Shown here one piece after another: positions 47,558 to 61,553 of a stretch of DNA of 64,000 nt (position 1 is its first letter; every line of letters begins with the position of its first letter). Below the pieces are notes generated by a model. The model made no database searches and had not been told where the DNA came from. It worked only from the letters and a program-made list of their open reading frames with translations. Position numbers and translations under genes: made by a program. The DNA is from Burkholderiales bacterium. GTDB taxonomy: Bacteria; Pseudomonadota; Gammaproteobacteria; Burkholderiales; SG8-39. The stretch covers positions 6,500-70,499 of the forward strand of contig JBFWRS010000003.1 of the NCBI GenBank assembly GCA_050248795.1. Direction: 5' to 3'.

Positions 47558-47818
47558 ATGAACGAAGCGGAAGTGCGGGCAGGGGTGATCGCGGTGATCA
47601 GGTCGATCGCGCCCGAGGTCGAGGAGGGCGAGATCGACCCGGCGCGTTTGCTGCGCGACCAGATCGACCTCGACTCGATGGACTGGCTGAACGTGATCGT
47701 CGCATTCCACGAGCGCTTCGGCATCGACATCCCCGAGGCCGACTACGCCAGGCTGACCACGCTGGATGCGGTGGTCGGCTACATCGCCGCGAAGAAAGCG
47801 GGAAAGCCCGCCGGCTAG
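47558..47818 (+). CDS. acyl carrier protein / phosphopantetheine-binding protein
   Basis: 86 aa four-helix pattern with DQIDLDSMDWLNV (DS attachment motif). GAGAGGAA RBS. Confidence 0.7.
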   Translation: MNEAEVRAGVIAVIRSIAPEVEEGEIDPARLLRDQIDLDSMDWLNVIVAFHERFGIDIPEADYARLTTLDAVVGYIAAKKAGKPAG

Positions 47819-48342
47819 AGTTCTTTCACGATCCGCACCAGCGTGCGGTCTTCAGGCACCGGCTCGACGCGAAATCCGAGTGCTCGCACGAAGCGCAGCA
47901 TCGGCCGGTTGGTGGCGAGCACCAGGCCTTCCATGCGCCGCAGGCCGCGCGCGCGCGCCGCCTGCATCAGCGCGTCCATCAGCACACCCGCCAGCCCGGA
48001 CTTCTGCCAGGCGTCCGCGATGACGATGCCGAGCTCGCAACTGCGCCCGTCCGGCGCGGCGACGTAGCGCGCCTCGCCGACCACTTCCTCGCCGCCGTCG
48101 CGCGCGTGCGTGCCGAGCAGCGCCAGGTGCTTGTCATGGTCGACGTCGGTGAGGAAATGGATCAGCCGGTCCGAGGGCGCATGCACCCACTTCTGGAACC
48201 GCAGGTAGCGCGTCTCGCCCGACAGGTGCTGGATGAAGTCCCGCTCGGCGAGGTCGTCGTCGCGGCGCACCGGGCGGATGTGCACCATGCGGCCGTCGCG
48301 CAGCCGCAGCCGCTTTTCGAGTTCCGCGGGGTACGCGGCCAT
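47815..48342 (-). CDS. stand-alone Pat-type GNAT acetyltransferase
   Basis: 175 aa, colinear with the C-terminal GNAT of the 24909-27593 protein: YPAELE, LRDG, IRPVRRDD, RYLRF, DAWQKSGLAG. The long track ORF to 48951 is an upstream extension in the same frame. Confidence 0.75.
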   Translation of the reverse strand: MAAYPAELEKRLRLRDGRMVHIRPVRRDDDLAERDFIQHLSGETRYLRFQKWVHAPSDRLIHFLTDVDHDKHLALLGTHARDGGEEVVGEARYVAAPDGRSCELGIVIADAWQKSGLAGVLMDALMQAARARGLRRMEGLVLATNRPMLRFVRALGFRVEPVPEDRTLVRIVKEL

Positions 48343-48427
48343 CAGCGCTGTACCGATCGGGCCGGGCGGGCGTTGGCATCCATGGCGTAGGGTATGCTGG
48401 ATCGGCACGGCGCGAGAAGGCGCGGGT

Positions 48428-48441
48428 TTGACCGGCGTCAA
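48428..48441. promoter_or_regulatory. FNR/Anr box (small ORF / Lon-like operon promoter)
   Basis: TTGACcggcGTCAA inside the palindrome GCGGGTTTGAC-CGGC-GTCAAACGCGC. CAGGAT hexamer 21 bp downstream. 33 bp from the ATG at 48475. Confidence 0.65.
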
Positions 48442-48474
48442 ACGCGCGTGCCGCAGCGGAGGCAGGATCATGCC

Positions 48475-48792
48475 ATGCTGACATTCGAGGACTGCATCGC
48501 CCTGTGCGGCCTGAGCGAGGACGAGGTGCGCGCGATTGCCGAGCACGAGCACATACCGGAGCTCGCCGCCGCCGAGTACGGCAATTACCTCGCCAGCACG
48601 CCCGAGGGCGAACAATGCATCCGCGCGATGATCCGCGACGACATCGCGAACGCCGCGGCATCCGGCAACCTCGAGCGGCAGCTCGCGCTGAAGCTGGTGC
48701 TGCGCAATTTCATCCTGCAGCACCCGCGCTGCGAACAGCGCCACCGCGACGAGCTTCACCTGCCTGAGCGCCGCCTGGCGGGCAGGAGCTGA
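48475..48792 (+). CDS. hypothetical helical protein (105 aa) preceding the Lon-like protease
   Basis: ATG at 48475. Its stop lies 1 nt before the Lon-like ATG. No recognisable family. Four Cys. Confidence 0.5.
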   Translation: MLTFEDCIALCGLSEDEVRAIAEHEHIPELAAAEYGNYLASTPEGEQCIRAMIRDDIANAAASGNLERQLALKLVLRNFILQHPRCEQRHRDELHLPERRLAGRS

Positions 48793-48793
48793 C

Positions 48794-51247
48794 ATGCAGG
48801 CCGCCTCGCCCGCGCCGCTCGCGGCGGCGCAGCTGTGCCGCCGCTGCGACCCCGAGCGGCTGGGATTCGGCACCACCGACGAGCTCACCGACCTCGCCGA
48901 CCCGCCGGGCCAGGCGCGCGCCGAGGGCGCGATCCGCTTTGCGGTGGACATGGTGCACGAGGGCTACAACCTGTTCGTCATGGGGCCGGAGGGCTTCGGC
49001 CGCCGCAGCATGATCCGCCGCATCCTCGAGCGCCGCGAGCCGCCGCGCGCGGATGCGCTGTCCGACTGGTGCTACGTGTTCAATTTCGCGCAGCCGCACC
49101 AGCCGCGCGCGCTGCGGCTTCCCGCCGGCCGCGCGGCGAAGCTGCGCGACGGCATGGCGCGACTGGTCGAGGACCTGGGCGCGGCGATTCCGTCGGCGTT
49201 CGAGACCGACGAGTACCGCACGCGCCAGAAGGAAATCGAGCGCGTGTTCGAGCAGCGCCAGGAAGAAGCGCTCGGCGCGGTGGGCGATCATGCGCGCAAG
49301 GACGGCATCGCGCTCTTGCGCACGCCTTCCGGCTTCGGCTTTGCGCCGCTGCACGAAGACGCCGTGATGGAGCCGGATGCGTTCCGCAAGCTGCCGCAGG
49401 CCGAGCAGGAACGCCTGCAGCATCGCATCGCCGAGCTGCAGGAGGAGCTCGAGGCGGTTATCCACGAGATGCCGAAGTGGCGCCGCGAGGCGCAGCGCCA
49501 GTTGCGCGAGCTGAACCGCCAGGTCGCCAGCGCGGCGGTGAACGGCCTGATCGAGGAGCTCGAGTCCGCTTGGCGCGACCTGCCGGCGGTGAGCGCGTAC
49601 CTGGGCGAGGTGCGCGAGGACGTGCTCGAACACGCGGAATACTTCCGCCAGTCGAAGGACGGCGAGCGCCCGACGCTGTTTGGCATGCCGTTGCCGATGC
49701 CCGAGGGCGGCGATGCGCCGCTGCGCCGCTATGTCGTCAACGTGCTGGTGGAGAACGCCGACGCGCAGGCCGTGCCCATCGTCACCGAGGAAAACCCCAC
49801 GCACGACAACCTGCTCGGGCGCATCGAGCACATCGCGCAGATGGGCACGCTGGTAACGGACTTTTCGCTCATCAAGGCGGGCGCGCTGCATCGCGCCAAC
49901 GGCGGCTACCTGGTGCTGGACGCGGTGAAGGTGCTGTCGCAGCCCTTCGCCTGGGAGGCGCTCAAGCGCGCGCTGCGCTCGCGCGAGATCCGCACCGAGT
50001 CGCTGGGGCGCGCGCTCAGCCTGGTGAGTACCGTGTCGCTGCTGCCCGAGCCGATCCCGCTCGCGCTCAAGGTGGTGCTGGTGGGGCCGCGCATGATCTA
50101 TTACCTGCTGCACGCCTACGACCCGGAGTTCGCGGAACTGTTCAAGGTGGCGGCCGACTTCGAGGATGACTTCGAGCGCAGCGTCGAGGCCGACCGGCTC
50201 TACGCGCGCCTGGTGGCGACGATCGCGCGGCGCGAGAAGCTGCGCGCGCTCGATGCCGGCGCGGTGGCGCGCGTGATCGAGCACGCGGCGCGCACCGCCG
50301 GTGCGGCGGAAAAGCTGTCGGCGAACCTGGCGCGGCTTGCCGACCTGCTGCGCGAATCGGACCACTGGGCCGCCGCCGGCGGCAGGACGGTCACCGGCGC
50401 CGCGGACGTGCAGCGCGCCATCGACGCGCAGGACGAGCGCGCCGGTCGCGTGCGCGACCGCATGCACGAGGCGATCTTCAAGGGCACGCTGCTGATCGAC
50501 ACGCGCGGCGAGCGCGTCGGGCAGGTGAACGGCCTCGCCGTCACCGAGCTCGGCGGCCGCGCCTTCGGCATCCCGCACCGCATCACGGCGCGCGTGCGCC
50601 TGGGCAGCGGCAGGGTGATGGACATCGAGCGCGAAGCCGAGCTCGGCGGGCCGATCCATTCCAAGGGCGTGCTGATCCTCTCAGGCTTCCTCGCCTCCCG
50701 CTACGCGGCGAAGCTGCCGCTCGCGCTGTCGGCCAGCCTGGTATTCGAGCAGAGCTACGGCGGCGTCGAGGGAGACAGCGCGTCCTCGGCGGAACTGTGC
50801 GCGCTGCTATCGGCGCTCGCCGAGGCACCGCTGCGCCAGTCGCTCGCCATCACCGGCTCGGTGAACCAGCATGGCGACGTGCAGGCGATCGGCGGCGTCA
50901 ACGAGAAGATCGAGGGCTTCTTCGATGTCTGCCGCGCGCGCGGGCTGGCGGCGGGGCAGGGCGTGATCATCCCGGCCGCCAACGTGCAGCACCTGATGCT
51001 GCGCGCGGACGTGGTGCAGGCGGTGGCGGAAGGCCGCTTCGCGATCTATCCGGTCGGCTCGATCGACGAAGCTGCGGCGCTGCTGAGCGGCATGCCCGCG
51101 GGCGAGCGCGATGCGCTGGGCGCATTCCCGCCCGGATCGCTGAACGGCCGGGTCGAACAGCGCCTCACCGATTTCGCGGCACAGGCGCGCGGCGCCGCGC
51201 CAGGACGCGAGCGCAGGCGCGATGCGCGCACGGGGCGGCGGCGATGA
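48794..51247 (+). CDS. Lon-like protease with degenerate AAA module (LonC/COG1067-like)
   Basis: C-terminal Lon S16 domain with GDSASSAE (Ser) and GGVNEKIEG (Lys). N-terminal P-loop-like VMGPEGFGRRS with Arg where the Walker A Lys is expected. Long helical insertion. Confidence 0.85.
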   Translation: MQAASPAPLAAAQLCRRCDPERLGFGTTDELTDLADPPGQARAEGAIRFAVDMVHEGYNLFVMGPEGFGRRSMIRRILERREPPRADALSDWCYVFNFAQPHQPRALRLPAGRAAKLRDGMARLVEDLGAAIPSAFETDEYRTRQKEIERVFEQRQEEALGAVGDHARKDGIALLRTPSGFGFAPLHEDAVMEPDAFRKLPQAEQERLQHRIAELQEELEAVIHEMPKWRREAQRQLRELNRQVASAAVNGLIEELESAWRDLPAVSAYLGEVREDVLEHAEYFRQSKDGERPTLFGMPLPMPEGGDAPLRRYVVNVLVENADAQAVPIVTEENPTHDNLLGRIEHIAQMGTLVTDFSLIKAGALHRANGGYLVLDAVKVLSQPFAWEALKRALRSREIRTESLGRALSLVSTVSLLPEPIPLALKVVLVGPRMIYYLLHAYDPEFAELFKVAADFEDDFERSVEADRLYARLVATIARREKLRALDAGAVARVIEHAARTAGAAEKLSANLARLADLLRESDHWAAAGGRTVTGAADVQRAIDAQDERAGRVRDRMHEAIFKGTLLIDTRGERVGQVNGLAVTELGGRAFGIPHRITARVRLGSGRVMDIEREAELGGPIHSKGVLILSGFLASRYAAKLPLALSASLVFEQSYGGVEGDSASSAELCALLSALAEAPLRQSLAITGSVNQHGDVQAIGGVNEKIEGFFDVCRARGLAAGQGVIIPAANVQHLMLRADVVQAVAEGRFAIYPVGSIDEAAALLSGMPAGERDALGAFPPGSLNGRVEQRLTDFAAQARGAAPGRERRRDARTGRRR

Positions 51248-51906
51248 ACGCGCGGCGCATCGTGCTCGGGCTCGAGGCCGGCATGTCGGCACGCGAACTC
51301 GAGGCAACCGCACAACTGGCGCAGCGCGTCGATGCCGAGCTGCTCGGCCTGTTCGTCGAGGATGCGGACCTGCTGCGCTTCGCCGAATTGCCTTTCGCGC
51401 TGGAGATCGGGCACGCGTCCGCGCAGCGGCGCAGGCCCGATGCGGCCGCGCTGCAGCGCGAGATGCGCGCGCTGGCGGCCGAGGCCGAGCGCGCGCTCGC
51501 CGGCATCGCCGCGCGCGTGCCGGTGCGCTGGTCGTTTCGCGTCACGCGTGGCTACGCCGCCACGGAGCTGCTCGCCGCGGCCGCCGAGGCGGTGGGCGCG
51601 GATCTGCGCCTGCTGCTGCTGGGCGACGGCGATTCGCCGGTGACGCGATGGGCGGAGGCAGCCTGCGCGCGGCTCGCCGGCACCAGCGCGGCACCCAGGC
51701 TGGAACTGGTGCGCGCGGCGGACGTCGATGAACTGGCCGCCGCGCTGCAGGCGGCTGCGCCGGGCGTCGTCGTGCTGCGCGCCGAAGCGTCGTTGCTGTC
51801 GCAGCGCGGCTTGCCGGACCTGCTGCAACGCAGTGCCGCGTCGGTTCTGGTGCTGCCGACGCGCCCTGCAGTGCCGCGGCCGCGCGCGGCGTCAGCGCGC
51901 CACTAG
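51244..51906 (+). CDS. hypothetical protein (220 aa), translationally coupled to the Lon-like gene
   Basis: ATGA overlap with the Lon-like stop. Ala/Leu/Arg-rich with alternating strand/helix pattern. No motif recognised. Confidence 0.45.
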
Positions 51907-53519
51907 TACGGCGATTCCGGCGGCTGCGCTGCGGCGCGCTCCGGCAGGCGCGCAATCATGACGTCTGTGGTGAGCGCAAGGCCGGCGATCGACGCGGCGT
52001 TCTGCAGGCCGGCGCGCGTCACCTTGCACGGGTCAAGGACCCCCATCTCCACCAGGTCGCCGTACTCGCCGGTGGCGGCGTTGTAGCCGAAGTCTCCCTT
52101 TGCCTCGACCACGCGATTGACGACCACCGAGGGTTCGTCGCCAGCGTTGCGCGCGAGCTGGCGCAGCGGGTCCTCGAGCGCGCGCAGCACGATGCGGATG
52201 CCGGCATCCTGGTCGGCGTTGCCGCCGTGCAGGCCCTTCTGCAGGCGCGCGCGGGCGCGCAGCAGCCCGAGGCCGCCGCCCGGCAGCACGCCTTCCTCGA
52301 CCGCGGCGCGCGTCGCGTGCAGCGCGTCCTCGGTGCGCGCCTTGCGCTCCTTCATCTCGGTTTCGGTCGCGGCGCCGACCTTGATCAACGCCACCCCGCC
52401 TGCGAGCTTGGCGGCGCGTTCCTGCAGTTTCTCGCGGTCGTAGTCGCTGCCGGCGTCGTCGATCTGCCGCCGGATCGCGGCGACGCGCGCGTCGATGGCC
52501 GCGGGATCGCCGCCGCCGCCGATCAGCGTGGTGTCGTCCTTGTCGATCTCGACGCGCCTGGCGCGCCCGAGGTCCTCGAGCGACGCCTTCTCCAGCGACC
52601 TGCCTGCTTCCACCGAGATCACCCTGGCGCCGGTGAGCACCGCGAGGTCCTCCAGCATCGCCTTCCTGCGGTCGCCGAACCCGGGCGCCTTGACGGCGCA
52701 GGCCCTGATCACGCTGCGCAGCGAGTTGACCACCAGCGTGGCGAGCGCCTCGCCCTCGACCTCCTCGGCGATGACCAGCAGCGGCTTGCCGAGCTTGGCG
52801 ATGCCCTCCAGCAGCGGCAGCATGTCGCGGATCGCCGATATCTTGCTGTCGCACAGCAGCACCTGCACGTCCTCGAGCACCACGCGCTGCTTTTCCGCGT
52901 CGTTGATGAAGTACGGCGAAAGGTAGCCGCGGTCGAACTGCGTGCCCTCGACGACTTCGAGCTCGCTCTTCAGTCCCTTGCCGTCCTCGACGGTGATGAC
53001 GCCTTCCTTGCCCACGCGTTGCATTGCCTCGGCGACCATGTCGCCGATCGCGGCGTCGTTGTTGGCCGAGATCGTCGCCACCTGGGCGATCTCGGTGCGC
53101 GTCGAGCAGGGCCGCGCGGTGCGCTTCAACTCCTCGACGATCGCGGCGACAGCGAGGTCGATGCCGCGCTTCAGGTCCATCGGGTTCATGCCGGCGGCGA
53201 CGTACTTCATGCCCTCGGCGACGATGCCGGCGGCGAGCAGCGTCGCCGTGGTGGTGCCGTCGCCGGCGATTTCGGAGGTCTTCGAGGCCACCTCGCGCGC
53301 CATCTGCGCGCCCATGTTCTCGAACGGATCCTCGAGCTCGACTTCCTTCGCCACGACGACGCCGGAATTGATGATCTGCGGCGCACCGAAGCTGCGCTCC
53401 AGCACCACGGTGCGCGCCTTCGGTCCCAGCGTCACGCGCACTGCATCCGCCAGGATGCCGATGCCGCGCAGGATCTTCGCGCGGACCTGGTCGCCGAACA
53501 GGATACGCTTTGCACTCAT
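51903..53519 (-). CDS. groEL: orphan GroEL/Cpn60 paralogue (no groES, no GGM tail)
   Basis: [20 protein letters not shown]..., [15 protein letters not shown] motif. 538 aa ending ...AAQPPESPY. Confidence 0.9.
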
Positions 53520-60809: not shown

Positions 60810-61553
60810 CTAGTGGCTCAGTTCCAGCACGCGCTCGAGCCGGGAGATGTCGGCGATGCGCACGTGCTTCTGCTGCACTTCGATCAGGCCGTCCTTCTGG
60901 AACGCCGAGAACAGCCGGCTCACCGTCTCCAGCTTCAGCCCCAGGTAGCTGCCGATTTCCTCGCGCGTCATGCGCAGGTGGAAGTCGGACTGCGAATAGC
61001 CGCGGCGCACGAAGCGCTTCGAGAGGTTGATGAGGAAGGTGGCCAGGCGCTGCTCGGCCCGCATCGACCCCAGCAGCATCATCACGCCGTGGTCGCGCAC
61101 GATCTCGCGCGCCAGCACTGCGTGCAGGTTGCGCTGCAGCGCGGGTATCTCGCGCGCCATCTGCTCGATCAGCGCATAGGGCAGCACGCAGACTTCGCTG
61201 TCCTCCAGCGCGATCGCCGTGCCGTTGTAGGTCCCGGTGCCGATGCCGTCCATGCCGAGCAGCTCGCCGCCCATGAAGAAGCCGGTGACCTGCTCGCGCC
61301 CTTCGCCGTCGATGAGGATGGTCTTGAAGAAGCCGCTGCGGATCGAGTACACGGCGTTGAACGCCGCGCCGGCATTGAACAGCACGTCGCCGCGCTTCAT
61401 GCGGCGGCGCGCGTAGACCACGTTTTCCATTCGCGCCATGTCCTCGGCGCCCATCGACGCCGGCAGGCACAGTTCGCGCAGGTTGCAGCTGGAGCAGGTA
61501 ACCTCGAACTTCCTCGGGGCGGCTTCCTGCCTGATCGCGGTAACGGCGTACAT
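60810..61553 (-). CDS. fnr: FNR/Anr-family oxygen-sensing transcription regulator
   Basis: N-terminal CSSCNLRELC (C-x2-C-x5-C) plus central Cys (EVCVLPY), cNMP-like barrel and HTH with the ETVSR recognition motif. AAGGAG RBS before the ATG at 61553. Confidence 0.9.
   Translation of the reverse strand: MYAVTAIRQEAAPRKFEVTCSSCNLRELCLPASMGAEDMARMENVVYARRRMKRGDVLFNAGAAFNAVYSIRSGFFKTILIDGEGREQVTGFFMGGELLGMDGIGTGTYNGTAIALEDSEVCVLPYALIEQMAREIPALQRNLHAVLAREIVRDHGVMMLLGSMRAEQRLATFLINLSKRFVRRGYSQSDFHLRMTREEIGSYLGLKLETVSRLFSAFQKDGLIEVQQKHVRIADISRLERVLELSH

Follow-up and report, generated by a model that had tools for sequence, protein, structure and literature searches.

We analysed a 64,000-nucleotide stretch (the window) that lies within contig C3 of a 3.79-Mb metagenome-assembled genome of a Burkholderiales bacterium, in which three consecutive plus-strand genes at 48475–51906 encode a Lon-like protease and two small flanking proteins. 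The three genes probably form one low-oxygen operon, whose core is a two-gene module with a wide distribution in bacteria. The module consists of lonC (48794–51247, plus strand), an open reading frame (ORF) of 817 amino acids for a LonC-type protease of the long clade described below, and p220 (51244–51906, plus strand), an ORF of 220 amino acids whose product is derived from universal stress proteins (USPs). As judged from gene neighbourhoods, the p220 subfamily is an old, dedicated partner of LonC, found almost only directly 3' of long-clade lonC genes. The first gene of the operon, p105 (48475–48792, plus strand; 105 amino acids), is on comparable evidence a recent arrival, and in a narrow lineage only.

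The genes are tightly packed. The TGA of p105 is followed by a single base, C at 48793, and then by the lonC ATG at 48794, with GGAG located 8 nt 5' of this ATG. The four bases ATGA at 51244–51247 are common to the lonC stop and the p220 start. At the other end of the operon the palindrome CTAG holds both the p220 stop (TAG, 51904–51906) and the stop of a GroEL paralogue read from the minus strand (51903–51905), so that these two ORFs overlap by 4 bp. Terminator-like and sigma-70-like sites were looked for inside the operon and none was found. The G+C content of the window is about 70%. We nevertheless regard all three ORFs as real genes rather than high-GC chance ORFs, because p105 and p220 have many homologues and because the ratios of non-synonymous to synonymous differences (pN/pS), measured against the orthologous metagenome contig L001, were 0.29 for p105, 0.40 for lonC and 0.65 for p220.

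Domains and motifs place the protease in the LonC type of Lon-like proteases; its Ser-Lys dyad is intact, its Walker A and Walker B motifs are broken, and it is probably ATP-independent. Pfam detected PF20437 LonC_helical (7e-16), AAA_32 (3.5e-55), LonB_AAA-LID (4e-19) and Lon_C; residues 200–270 gave weak coiled-coil-type matches only. The protein has an S16 domain with the dyad and with Asp, not Pro, before the Ser, and an AAA-like module that is split by a LonC-type helical hairpin and accompanied by neither a LonA N-domain nor a membrane anchor. Its ATPase motifs are degenerate. The Walker A-like loop GPEGFGRRS (residues 64–72; 48983–49009, plus strand) has Arg70 at the expected Lys position, and the Walker B-like motif GGYLVLDA (residues 370–377; 49901–49924, plus strand) has Ala at the position of the catalytic Glu. 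The catalytic dyad (50777–50908, plus strand) consists of Ser662 (codon 50777–50779) in EGDSAS and Lys705 (codon 50906–50908) in GGVNEKI; the longer motifs GDSASSAE and NEKIEGF occupy residues 660–667 and 703–709. The best solved relative, MtaLonC/TTC1975 (PDB 4fwd), matched with E = 1.8e-85 over residues 313–767, the N-terminal third aligning weakly, and the two dyads align with each other. The 43-residue spacing between Ser662 and Lys705 equals that of MtaLonC when Ser582, which we take to be the catalytic serine of that enzyme, is subtracted from Lys625. Lys625 is the catalytic lysine of MtaLonC (PMC3391209).

Motifs were then compared across about 140 LonC-like genes. A Walker B motif without Glu was general across the long clade. 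The Walker A form GPEGxGR[RH] was confined to the subclade of the window, and most of the long clade has GxxGxGK followed by H, R or Q. In a midpoint-rooted tree the long clade (about 810 amino acids), which holds the protease of the window, stood apart from the MtaLonC type of Thermus-like genomes (about 720 amino acids), and both types coexist in some genomes. At the level of sequence the protease thus agrees with LonC in everything but clade identity: it does not fall among the characterised members but in a sister clade with the same Pfam architecture, and we regard it as a known kind of protein. Of the 301 genomes sampled from the order to which the window belongs, about 70 (a tally of match rows), or about a quarter, have the long clade, which occurs also in Chloroflexota, Acidobacteriota, Chlorobiota, Planctomycetota, Deinococcota and other groups. 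About 33 places in the order sample matched at 33–41% identity only, with proteins of about 815 amino acids (for example G019:C1:97406-99781, G125:C25 and G018:C8). They look like a third LonC-like group, which coexists with the long clade in several genomes; none of them had an adjoining match to the partner (tally). An earlier note, made from the letters of this DNA, had described ORFs of 105, 817 and 220 amino acids joined by a 1-nt gap and an ATGA overlap, a convergent GroEL gene with stops overlapping by 4 bp, an intact Ser-Lys Lon domain (GDSASSAE, EKIEG), a P-loop GPEGFGRRS with Arg for Lys, and a LonC-like identity. All of this is borne out by the positions, domains and structural match given above. 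The note had also taken the Walker A Arg as the mark of the degenerate P-loop; the Arg is indeed present but is a trait of one subclade, and the family-wide defect is the Walker B motif without Glu.

The association of lonC with p220 was examined from both sides. We fetched 80 lonC loci from different species and first sought the partner by tblastn. A p220 homologue was detected directly 3' of lonC and on the same strand at 44 of these loci, and in 24 of the 44 pairs the two genes overlapped by exactly 4 bp. When the partner was sought by profile and extra loci were added, it was found at 67 of 107 evaluable loci, from many phyla. In the reverse test we searched the 301 order genomes with the partner profile; of the 38 places matched at E below 1e-8, 36 lay directly 3' of lonC. 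Three further homologue contigs, picked on size alone, showed the same layout. Within Deinococcota the partner was present at all six long-clade loci and at none of the 24 loci of the MtaLonC type. The lonC genes that have no partner are scattered among the paired ones on the tree, and we read this distribution as an ancestral pairing that was repeatedly lost. A second lonC copy in genome G020 (G020:C2:328208-329413) is a fragment with two in-frame TAG codons, and a USP-partner gene lies directly 3' of it; this is one of the 36 places. No comparable gene was seen on the upstream side: when the upstream ORFs of about 110 loci were clustered, no family occurred at more than six of them. In none of the 44 tblastn pairs did the partner frame continue that of lonC without a stop, no search aimed at LonC-USP fusions having been made. 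We found no paper on the LonC-USP pairing in the literature searched.

Taken alone, p220 had no match in Pfam or NCBIfam, falling below Pfam reporting. Its family is more telling. The 297 homologues grade into tandem USPs of about 282 amino acids that carry PF00582, and full-length partners from lonC loci scored 35–66 bits against a Pfam Usp cut-off of 24. The family profile matched 4wny, a solved Burkholderia USP, at 1.8e-6. The AlphaFold2 model of p220 had a predicted local distance difference test score (pLDDT) of 88, and its top Foldseek matches were the tandem USPs TTHA0350 and Rv2623, with a probability of 1.0 and a template modelling (TM) score of about 0.34; USP-fold matches overall had probabilities of 0.96–1.0 and TM scores of 0.3–0.39, in keeping with a USP alpha/beta fold. 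Aligned to the profile of full-length partners, p220 covers positions 9–124 and 192–281 and is without positions 125–191 (about 67 positions), which comprise the end of USP domain 1 with its GxxGx9G(S/T) loop and the start of domain 2. The loop G-x2-G-x9-G-(S/T), by which the ATP-binding class of USPs is recognised, is absent from p220, which represents a natural minimal partner, without the nucleotide loop and without half of each USP domain. The profile alignment is collinear over 90 residues (E = 6.5e-13) and favours a deletion of positions 125–191. It disfavours an alternative given by BLAST, in which p220 residues 118–156 would correspond to USP domain 1 from strand 4 to strand 5; this alternative reads GDGD...AACA, and the ATP motif is gone under either alignment. 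From homologues, profile and predicted fold, p220 is a cut-down tandem USP of a LonC-dedicated subfamily.

Other shortened partners of the same subclade are cut differently, the profile match ending at position 145 (L009), 134 (L021) or 161 (L011). The N-terminal part of about 116 residues is the sole part that is kept in all shortened partners, these three included. This core (residues 1–116; 51244–51591, plus strand), which holds FVEDxxLLRxAxLPFAxE and WxFRVxRG, is also the most conserved part of the partner, with a column identity of 0.70 vs 0.58. The segment FVEDxxLLRxAxLPFAxE is an insert specific to the subfamily, and its signature is, like WxFRVxRG, invariant in the partner alignment. 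The insert is modelled in part with low confidence (AlphaFold2 pLDDT 57 for p220 residues 51–60). Low model confidence is common in segments that become ordered only upon binding. We considered whether the Lys or Arg of Walker A is tied to the ATP loop of the partner and rejected the idea: short partners are restricted to the GPEGxGR subclade, which is explained by shared ancestry, Arg-type LonC proteins outside it are paired with full partners, and a strict ATP loop is in any case missing from most of the latter.

Two readings of the pairing can be proposed. In the bolder and less probable one, the long clade could form a two-part, energy-independent protease with a dedicated USP accessory subunit; the 116-residue core, as delimited by the truncated partners, would be the minimal docking module, and in this genome p105 would add a redox or metal input. 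The probable reading is as follows. At low oxygen an FNR/Anr-type regulator, whose gene lies in the island described below, would switch on one transcript. The LonC ring would degrade or hold unfolded proteins without ATP hydrolysis, as MtaLonC does, and such ATP-free action would suit energy-starved cells. The USP-derived protein would be made in a fixed ratio with LonC, would bind it through the N-terminal 116-residue module with the FVEDxxLLRxAxLPFAxE insert, and would serve as its accessory regulator or adaptor. In the lineage of the window nucleotide input would have been lost on both sides; control is here probably by expression rather than by nucleotide, because the nucleotide loop of the partner and the Walker A Lys of LonC are both gone. 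The p105 protein would be a separate member of the FNR regulon, possibly with a thiol or metal site, that joined the operon through a deletion.

Several observations weigh against this second reading. Overall identity between the long clade and MtaLonC is low, at about 33%, with hardly any alignment over the first 310 residues. Roughly one in two long-clade lonC genes has no partner, be it next to the gene or at another place in the genome, for which reason we regard the partner as accessory and not obligatory. Several partners keep an intact GxxGx9GST loop and most are without it; because of this patchy loop and of the partner-less half of the clade, the role of the partner may differ among lineages. 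The p220 gene evolves fast, as its pN/pS against L001 indicates. Finally, p105 and long-clade LonC co-occur in excess of chance, the latter being present in 19 of the 30 order genomes that have p105 vs 51 of the other 271 (p = 7e-7). A functional link between p105 and LonC would be compatible with this figure, which shared ancestry and a shared regulon could also explain.

The same data bear on another role for the USP-derived protein, that of a dedicated substrate or inhibitor of LonC, a plug or decoy that silences the protease until it is displaced or degraded. An ATP-independent chamber protease needs some gating, and tight translational coupling fits inhibitor–enzyme pairs. Moreover, conservation in the partner peaks at a loop-like insert, LPFAxE, which is modelled at low confidence and could enter the peptide groove. 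We nevertheless consider this role less likely than that of an accessory regulator or adaptor, given that half of the lonC genes of the clade are partner-less, so that an unguarded protease would be tolerated, and that the sequence data show no sign of instability or cleavage of the partner.

The third protein differs from p220 in its history. Neither p105 itself nor its profile matched anything in Pfam, NCBIfam or the sequences of the PDB. Its AlphaFold2 model (pLDDT 86) is all-helical with six helices, and a Foldseek comparison with the PDB found no similar solved structure (best E = 1.3). Homologues are numerous, with more than 760 at 70–93% identity, and the family comprises 967 clusters at 50% identity, nearly all of them stand-alone proteins of 85–140 amino acids. 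Ten distant members were searched against Pfam and the sole match was a C-terminal DUF6455 in one of them, P0348 (215 amino acids), which is the only domain fusion among the members scanned. Residues H24, E25 and G45 are invariant in the broad family, and D6, C7 and E17 nearly so; the close subfamily, in which four Cys and two His are conserved, adds C11, C48, H83 and C86. A four-Cys metal site was considered and dropped, as the four Cys are kept in the close subfamily only, and a small thiol or metal site in p105 is possible.

None of the 80 lonC loci fetched from other species has a p105 gene. It was found in 30 of the 301 order genomes and adjoins lonC in three of these (G000, G166 and G072), which represent two genera of one family. 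Elsewhere p105 stands beside unrelated genes, such as those for CreD, DsrE, a CBS protein and a methyltransferase. Homologues of p105 are often located beside a Cpn60/GroEL paralogue or within 3 kb of one (L178 5001-6942, L094, L109 and L177), and in L178 the two genes are on the same strand with a gap of 14 bp; these arrangements hint at a link of p105 to GroEL rather than to LonC. Separate FNR-type boxes precede p105 and lonC in G166, each 34 bp 5' of the respective ATG. The G166 locus (L118, G166:C7; 1184–1495 and 3940–4818) has a phosphoribosyltransferase remnant and the second FNR box between p105 and lonC, and an alpha/beta-hydrolase gene is inserted there between lonC and the p220-like gene. 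In L180 p105 lies 2 kb 5' of lonC, and the interval is occupied by genes for a nitroreductase and a hibernation factor. Given the separate boxes and the remnant in G166 and the spaced genes in L180, we take the 1-nt junction of the window as the probable trace of a recent deletion by which two adjacent units, each under FNR control, became one.

These observations make it rather improbable that p105, LonC and p220 constitute one dedicated machine in which p105 serves as second cofactor, such as a sensor of redox state or metal that acts on LonC. Such a machine would account for the 1-nt gap with GGAG before the lonC start, for the recurrence of the triad in L001 and the neighbouring p105 and lonC genes in G166 and G072, for the co-occurrence in genomes (p = 7e-7) and for the conserved Cys and His of p105. 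The absence of p105 from all 80 lonC loci of other species, the location of most p105 genes elsewhere and next to unrelated genes, and the recent junction suggested by the boxes and gene remnant of G166 all argue the other way. The earlier note had treated the two flanking proteins as a pair (adaptor, substrate or inhibitor) and had looked to the conservation of the triad across genomes. The pair comes apart: the downstream protein is conserved with the protease (67 of 107 loci; 36 of 38 partner places) and is dedicated to it, whereas p105 is found beside lonC in three of 30 order genomes and at none of the 80 loci from other species. Its statement that neither protein belongs to a recognised family stands as far as Pfam and NCBIfam matches go and, on the wider evidence of homologues, profile and Foldseek, no longer applies to the 220-residue protein, a deleted tandem USP.

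The low-oxygen setting of the operon is indicated by its promoter region and its surroundings. An FNR/Anr-type box, TTGACCGGCGTCAA, is located at 48428–48441, 33 bp before the p105 ATG, in a 132-bp divergent region shared with a GNAT gene, and its spacing (33–35 bp) is kept in the orthologous loci L001, L089 and L090. The window contains seven perfect TTGAY-N4-RTCAA boxes vs 0.06 expected, and they span 28124–57702. Nine of the 37 boxes of the genome lie in a 44-kb part of contig C3 (34.6–78.2 kb), the densest FNR-type island of the genome. The island includes a gene for an FNR/Anr-type regulator of 247 amino acids (60810–61553, minus strand) with C20-x2-C23-x5-C29 and a fourth Cys, a pattern like that of E. 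coli FNR, and this protein is the best HTH_Crp_2 match of the genome. With a box at its promoter and an FNR-type regulator in the genome, the operon is a predicted member of an FNR/Anr regulon. Boxes of this type were also detected before p105 at nine of 33 loci from other genomes and before lonC at 13 of 113 loci, mostly from proteobacterial relatives.

Shared regulation raises the question of whether LonC and the USP-like protein are merely co-regulated stress genes that do not interact physically or functionally. Low-oxygen loci are rich in USP genes, the Burkholderia lxa locus (PMC3721108) being one example, and other USP genes occur near p105 in related contigs. This explanation is improbable in view of the 36 out of 38 places at which the USP subfamily sits directly 3' of lonC, of a pairing that spans phyla with different regulators and typically has a 4-bp overlap, and of the lonC pseudogene remnant in G020 that is still beside its partner. 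That the protease is an ordinary ATP-dependent Lon is very improbable: the AAA-like fold and a glycine-rich loop are kept, but Arg replaces the Walker A Lys and Ala the catalytic Glu of Walker B, the LonA N-terminal domain is missing, a canonical Lon-like gene is present elsewhere in the genome on contig C11, and MtaLonC, with the same Walker B defect, is without ATPase activity.

Two neighbours share borders with the operon. The GroEL paralogue (51903–53519, minus strand) is convergent with it, and a second groEL is located on contig C18. The convergent arrangement of the lonC–partner pair and Cpn60 recurs in L001 and L180, the metagenome contigs closest to the window, and a GroEL gene was found within 6 kb at six of the 80 lonC loci. 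The suggestion of the earlier note that the operon and GroEL form a dedicated low-oxygen proteostasis unit is therefore retained in its first half, the low-oxygen setting, for which the FNR boxes and the regulator speak; the link to GroEL appears to be specific to the lineage. On the other side a stand-alone GNAT acetyltransferase of 175 amino acids (47815–48342, minus strand) diverges from the operon and shares with it the 132-bp region of the FNR box. In L001 the same GNAT gene comes after pyruvate-dehydrogenase and acyl carrier protein genes, about 5.7 kb 5' of the operon. Among sequencing runs, one labelled as RNA gave a lone 167-nt contig within lonC with three mismatches, which is not informative on expression or operon structure, and the other runs that hold the stretch are metagenomic DNA. 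DNA nearly identical to 48400–51950 of the window was found in landfill, activated-sludge, sludge and compost metagenomes, and the organism would therefore be a recurrent inhabitant of waste-treatment habitats.

LonC is listed in MEROPS with eight members (PMC9569914), and a 2026 preprint ascribes it to 'certain thermophilic bacteria'. The distribution reported here is far wider than this thermophile picture, and the cellular role and regulation of LonC are left open in those papers. USPs are among the commonest stress proteins, and the molecular function is defined for few of them; a protease paired with a dedicated USP would therefore be a testable handle on both families. Should the two-part protease proposed above prove real, a whole USP subfamily would for the first time have a defined biochemical role, and the gating of an ATPase-dead Lon would be accounted for. 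To the module itself the window adds a minimal partner, the matching loss of the Walker A Lys, an FNR-type link to low oxygen and an upstream gene that is a local addition.

Among known systems, the lxa locus of Burkholderia cenocepacia is an island of genes preceded by TGA-N6-TCA boxes; it includes several USPs together with stress proteins and regulators of the Anr-like type (PMC3721108), and it resembles the island of co-regulated genes behind FNR/Anr-type boxes in the window. Its table of genes has the ATP-dependent Zn protease BCAM0309 and, unlike the window, no LonC-USP pair and no p105-like gene. We therefore rejected the lxa locus as a known equivalent and regard it as an analogous island with a Zn protease instead of LonC. 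In structure the p220 model comes closest to tandem USPs with PF00582, namely TTHA0350 (PDB 3ab8) and Rv2623 (PDB 3cis). Rv2623 belongs to the hypoxia regulon governed by DosR. Unlike these tandem USPs, p220 is without about 67 profile positions that include the ATP loop and has the insert FVEDxxLLRxAxLPFAxE, and the TM scores are low (0.34).

The closest characterised relative of the protease is MtaLonC/TTC1975 (MEROPS S16.007; PDB 4fwd, 4fw9, 7euy and 8k8v). MtaLonC has the Walker A-like loop GPPSLGKHE and the Walker B-like motif GYLILDA and shows no ATPase activity (PMC3391209), and its functions as protease and as chaperone are independent of ATP (PMC13069640). Like MtaLonC, LonC of the window is without a LonA N-terminal domain and has an AAA-like module split by a helical insertion, a Walker A-like loop, a Walker B LDA without Glu and a GDS...K Ser-Lys dyad; the C-terminal 455 residues of the two proteins align with E of about 1e-85. 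It differs in belonging to a separate deep clade, in being about 90 residues longer and in having Arg for the Walker A Lys. The long clade, moreover, is mesophilic and spread over many phyla, not restricted to thermophiles, and, unlike the loci of the MtaLonC type, at none of 24 of which a partner was present, it carries a dedicated USP partner.

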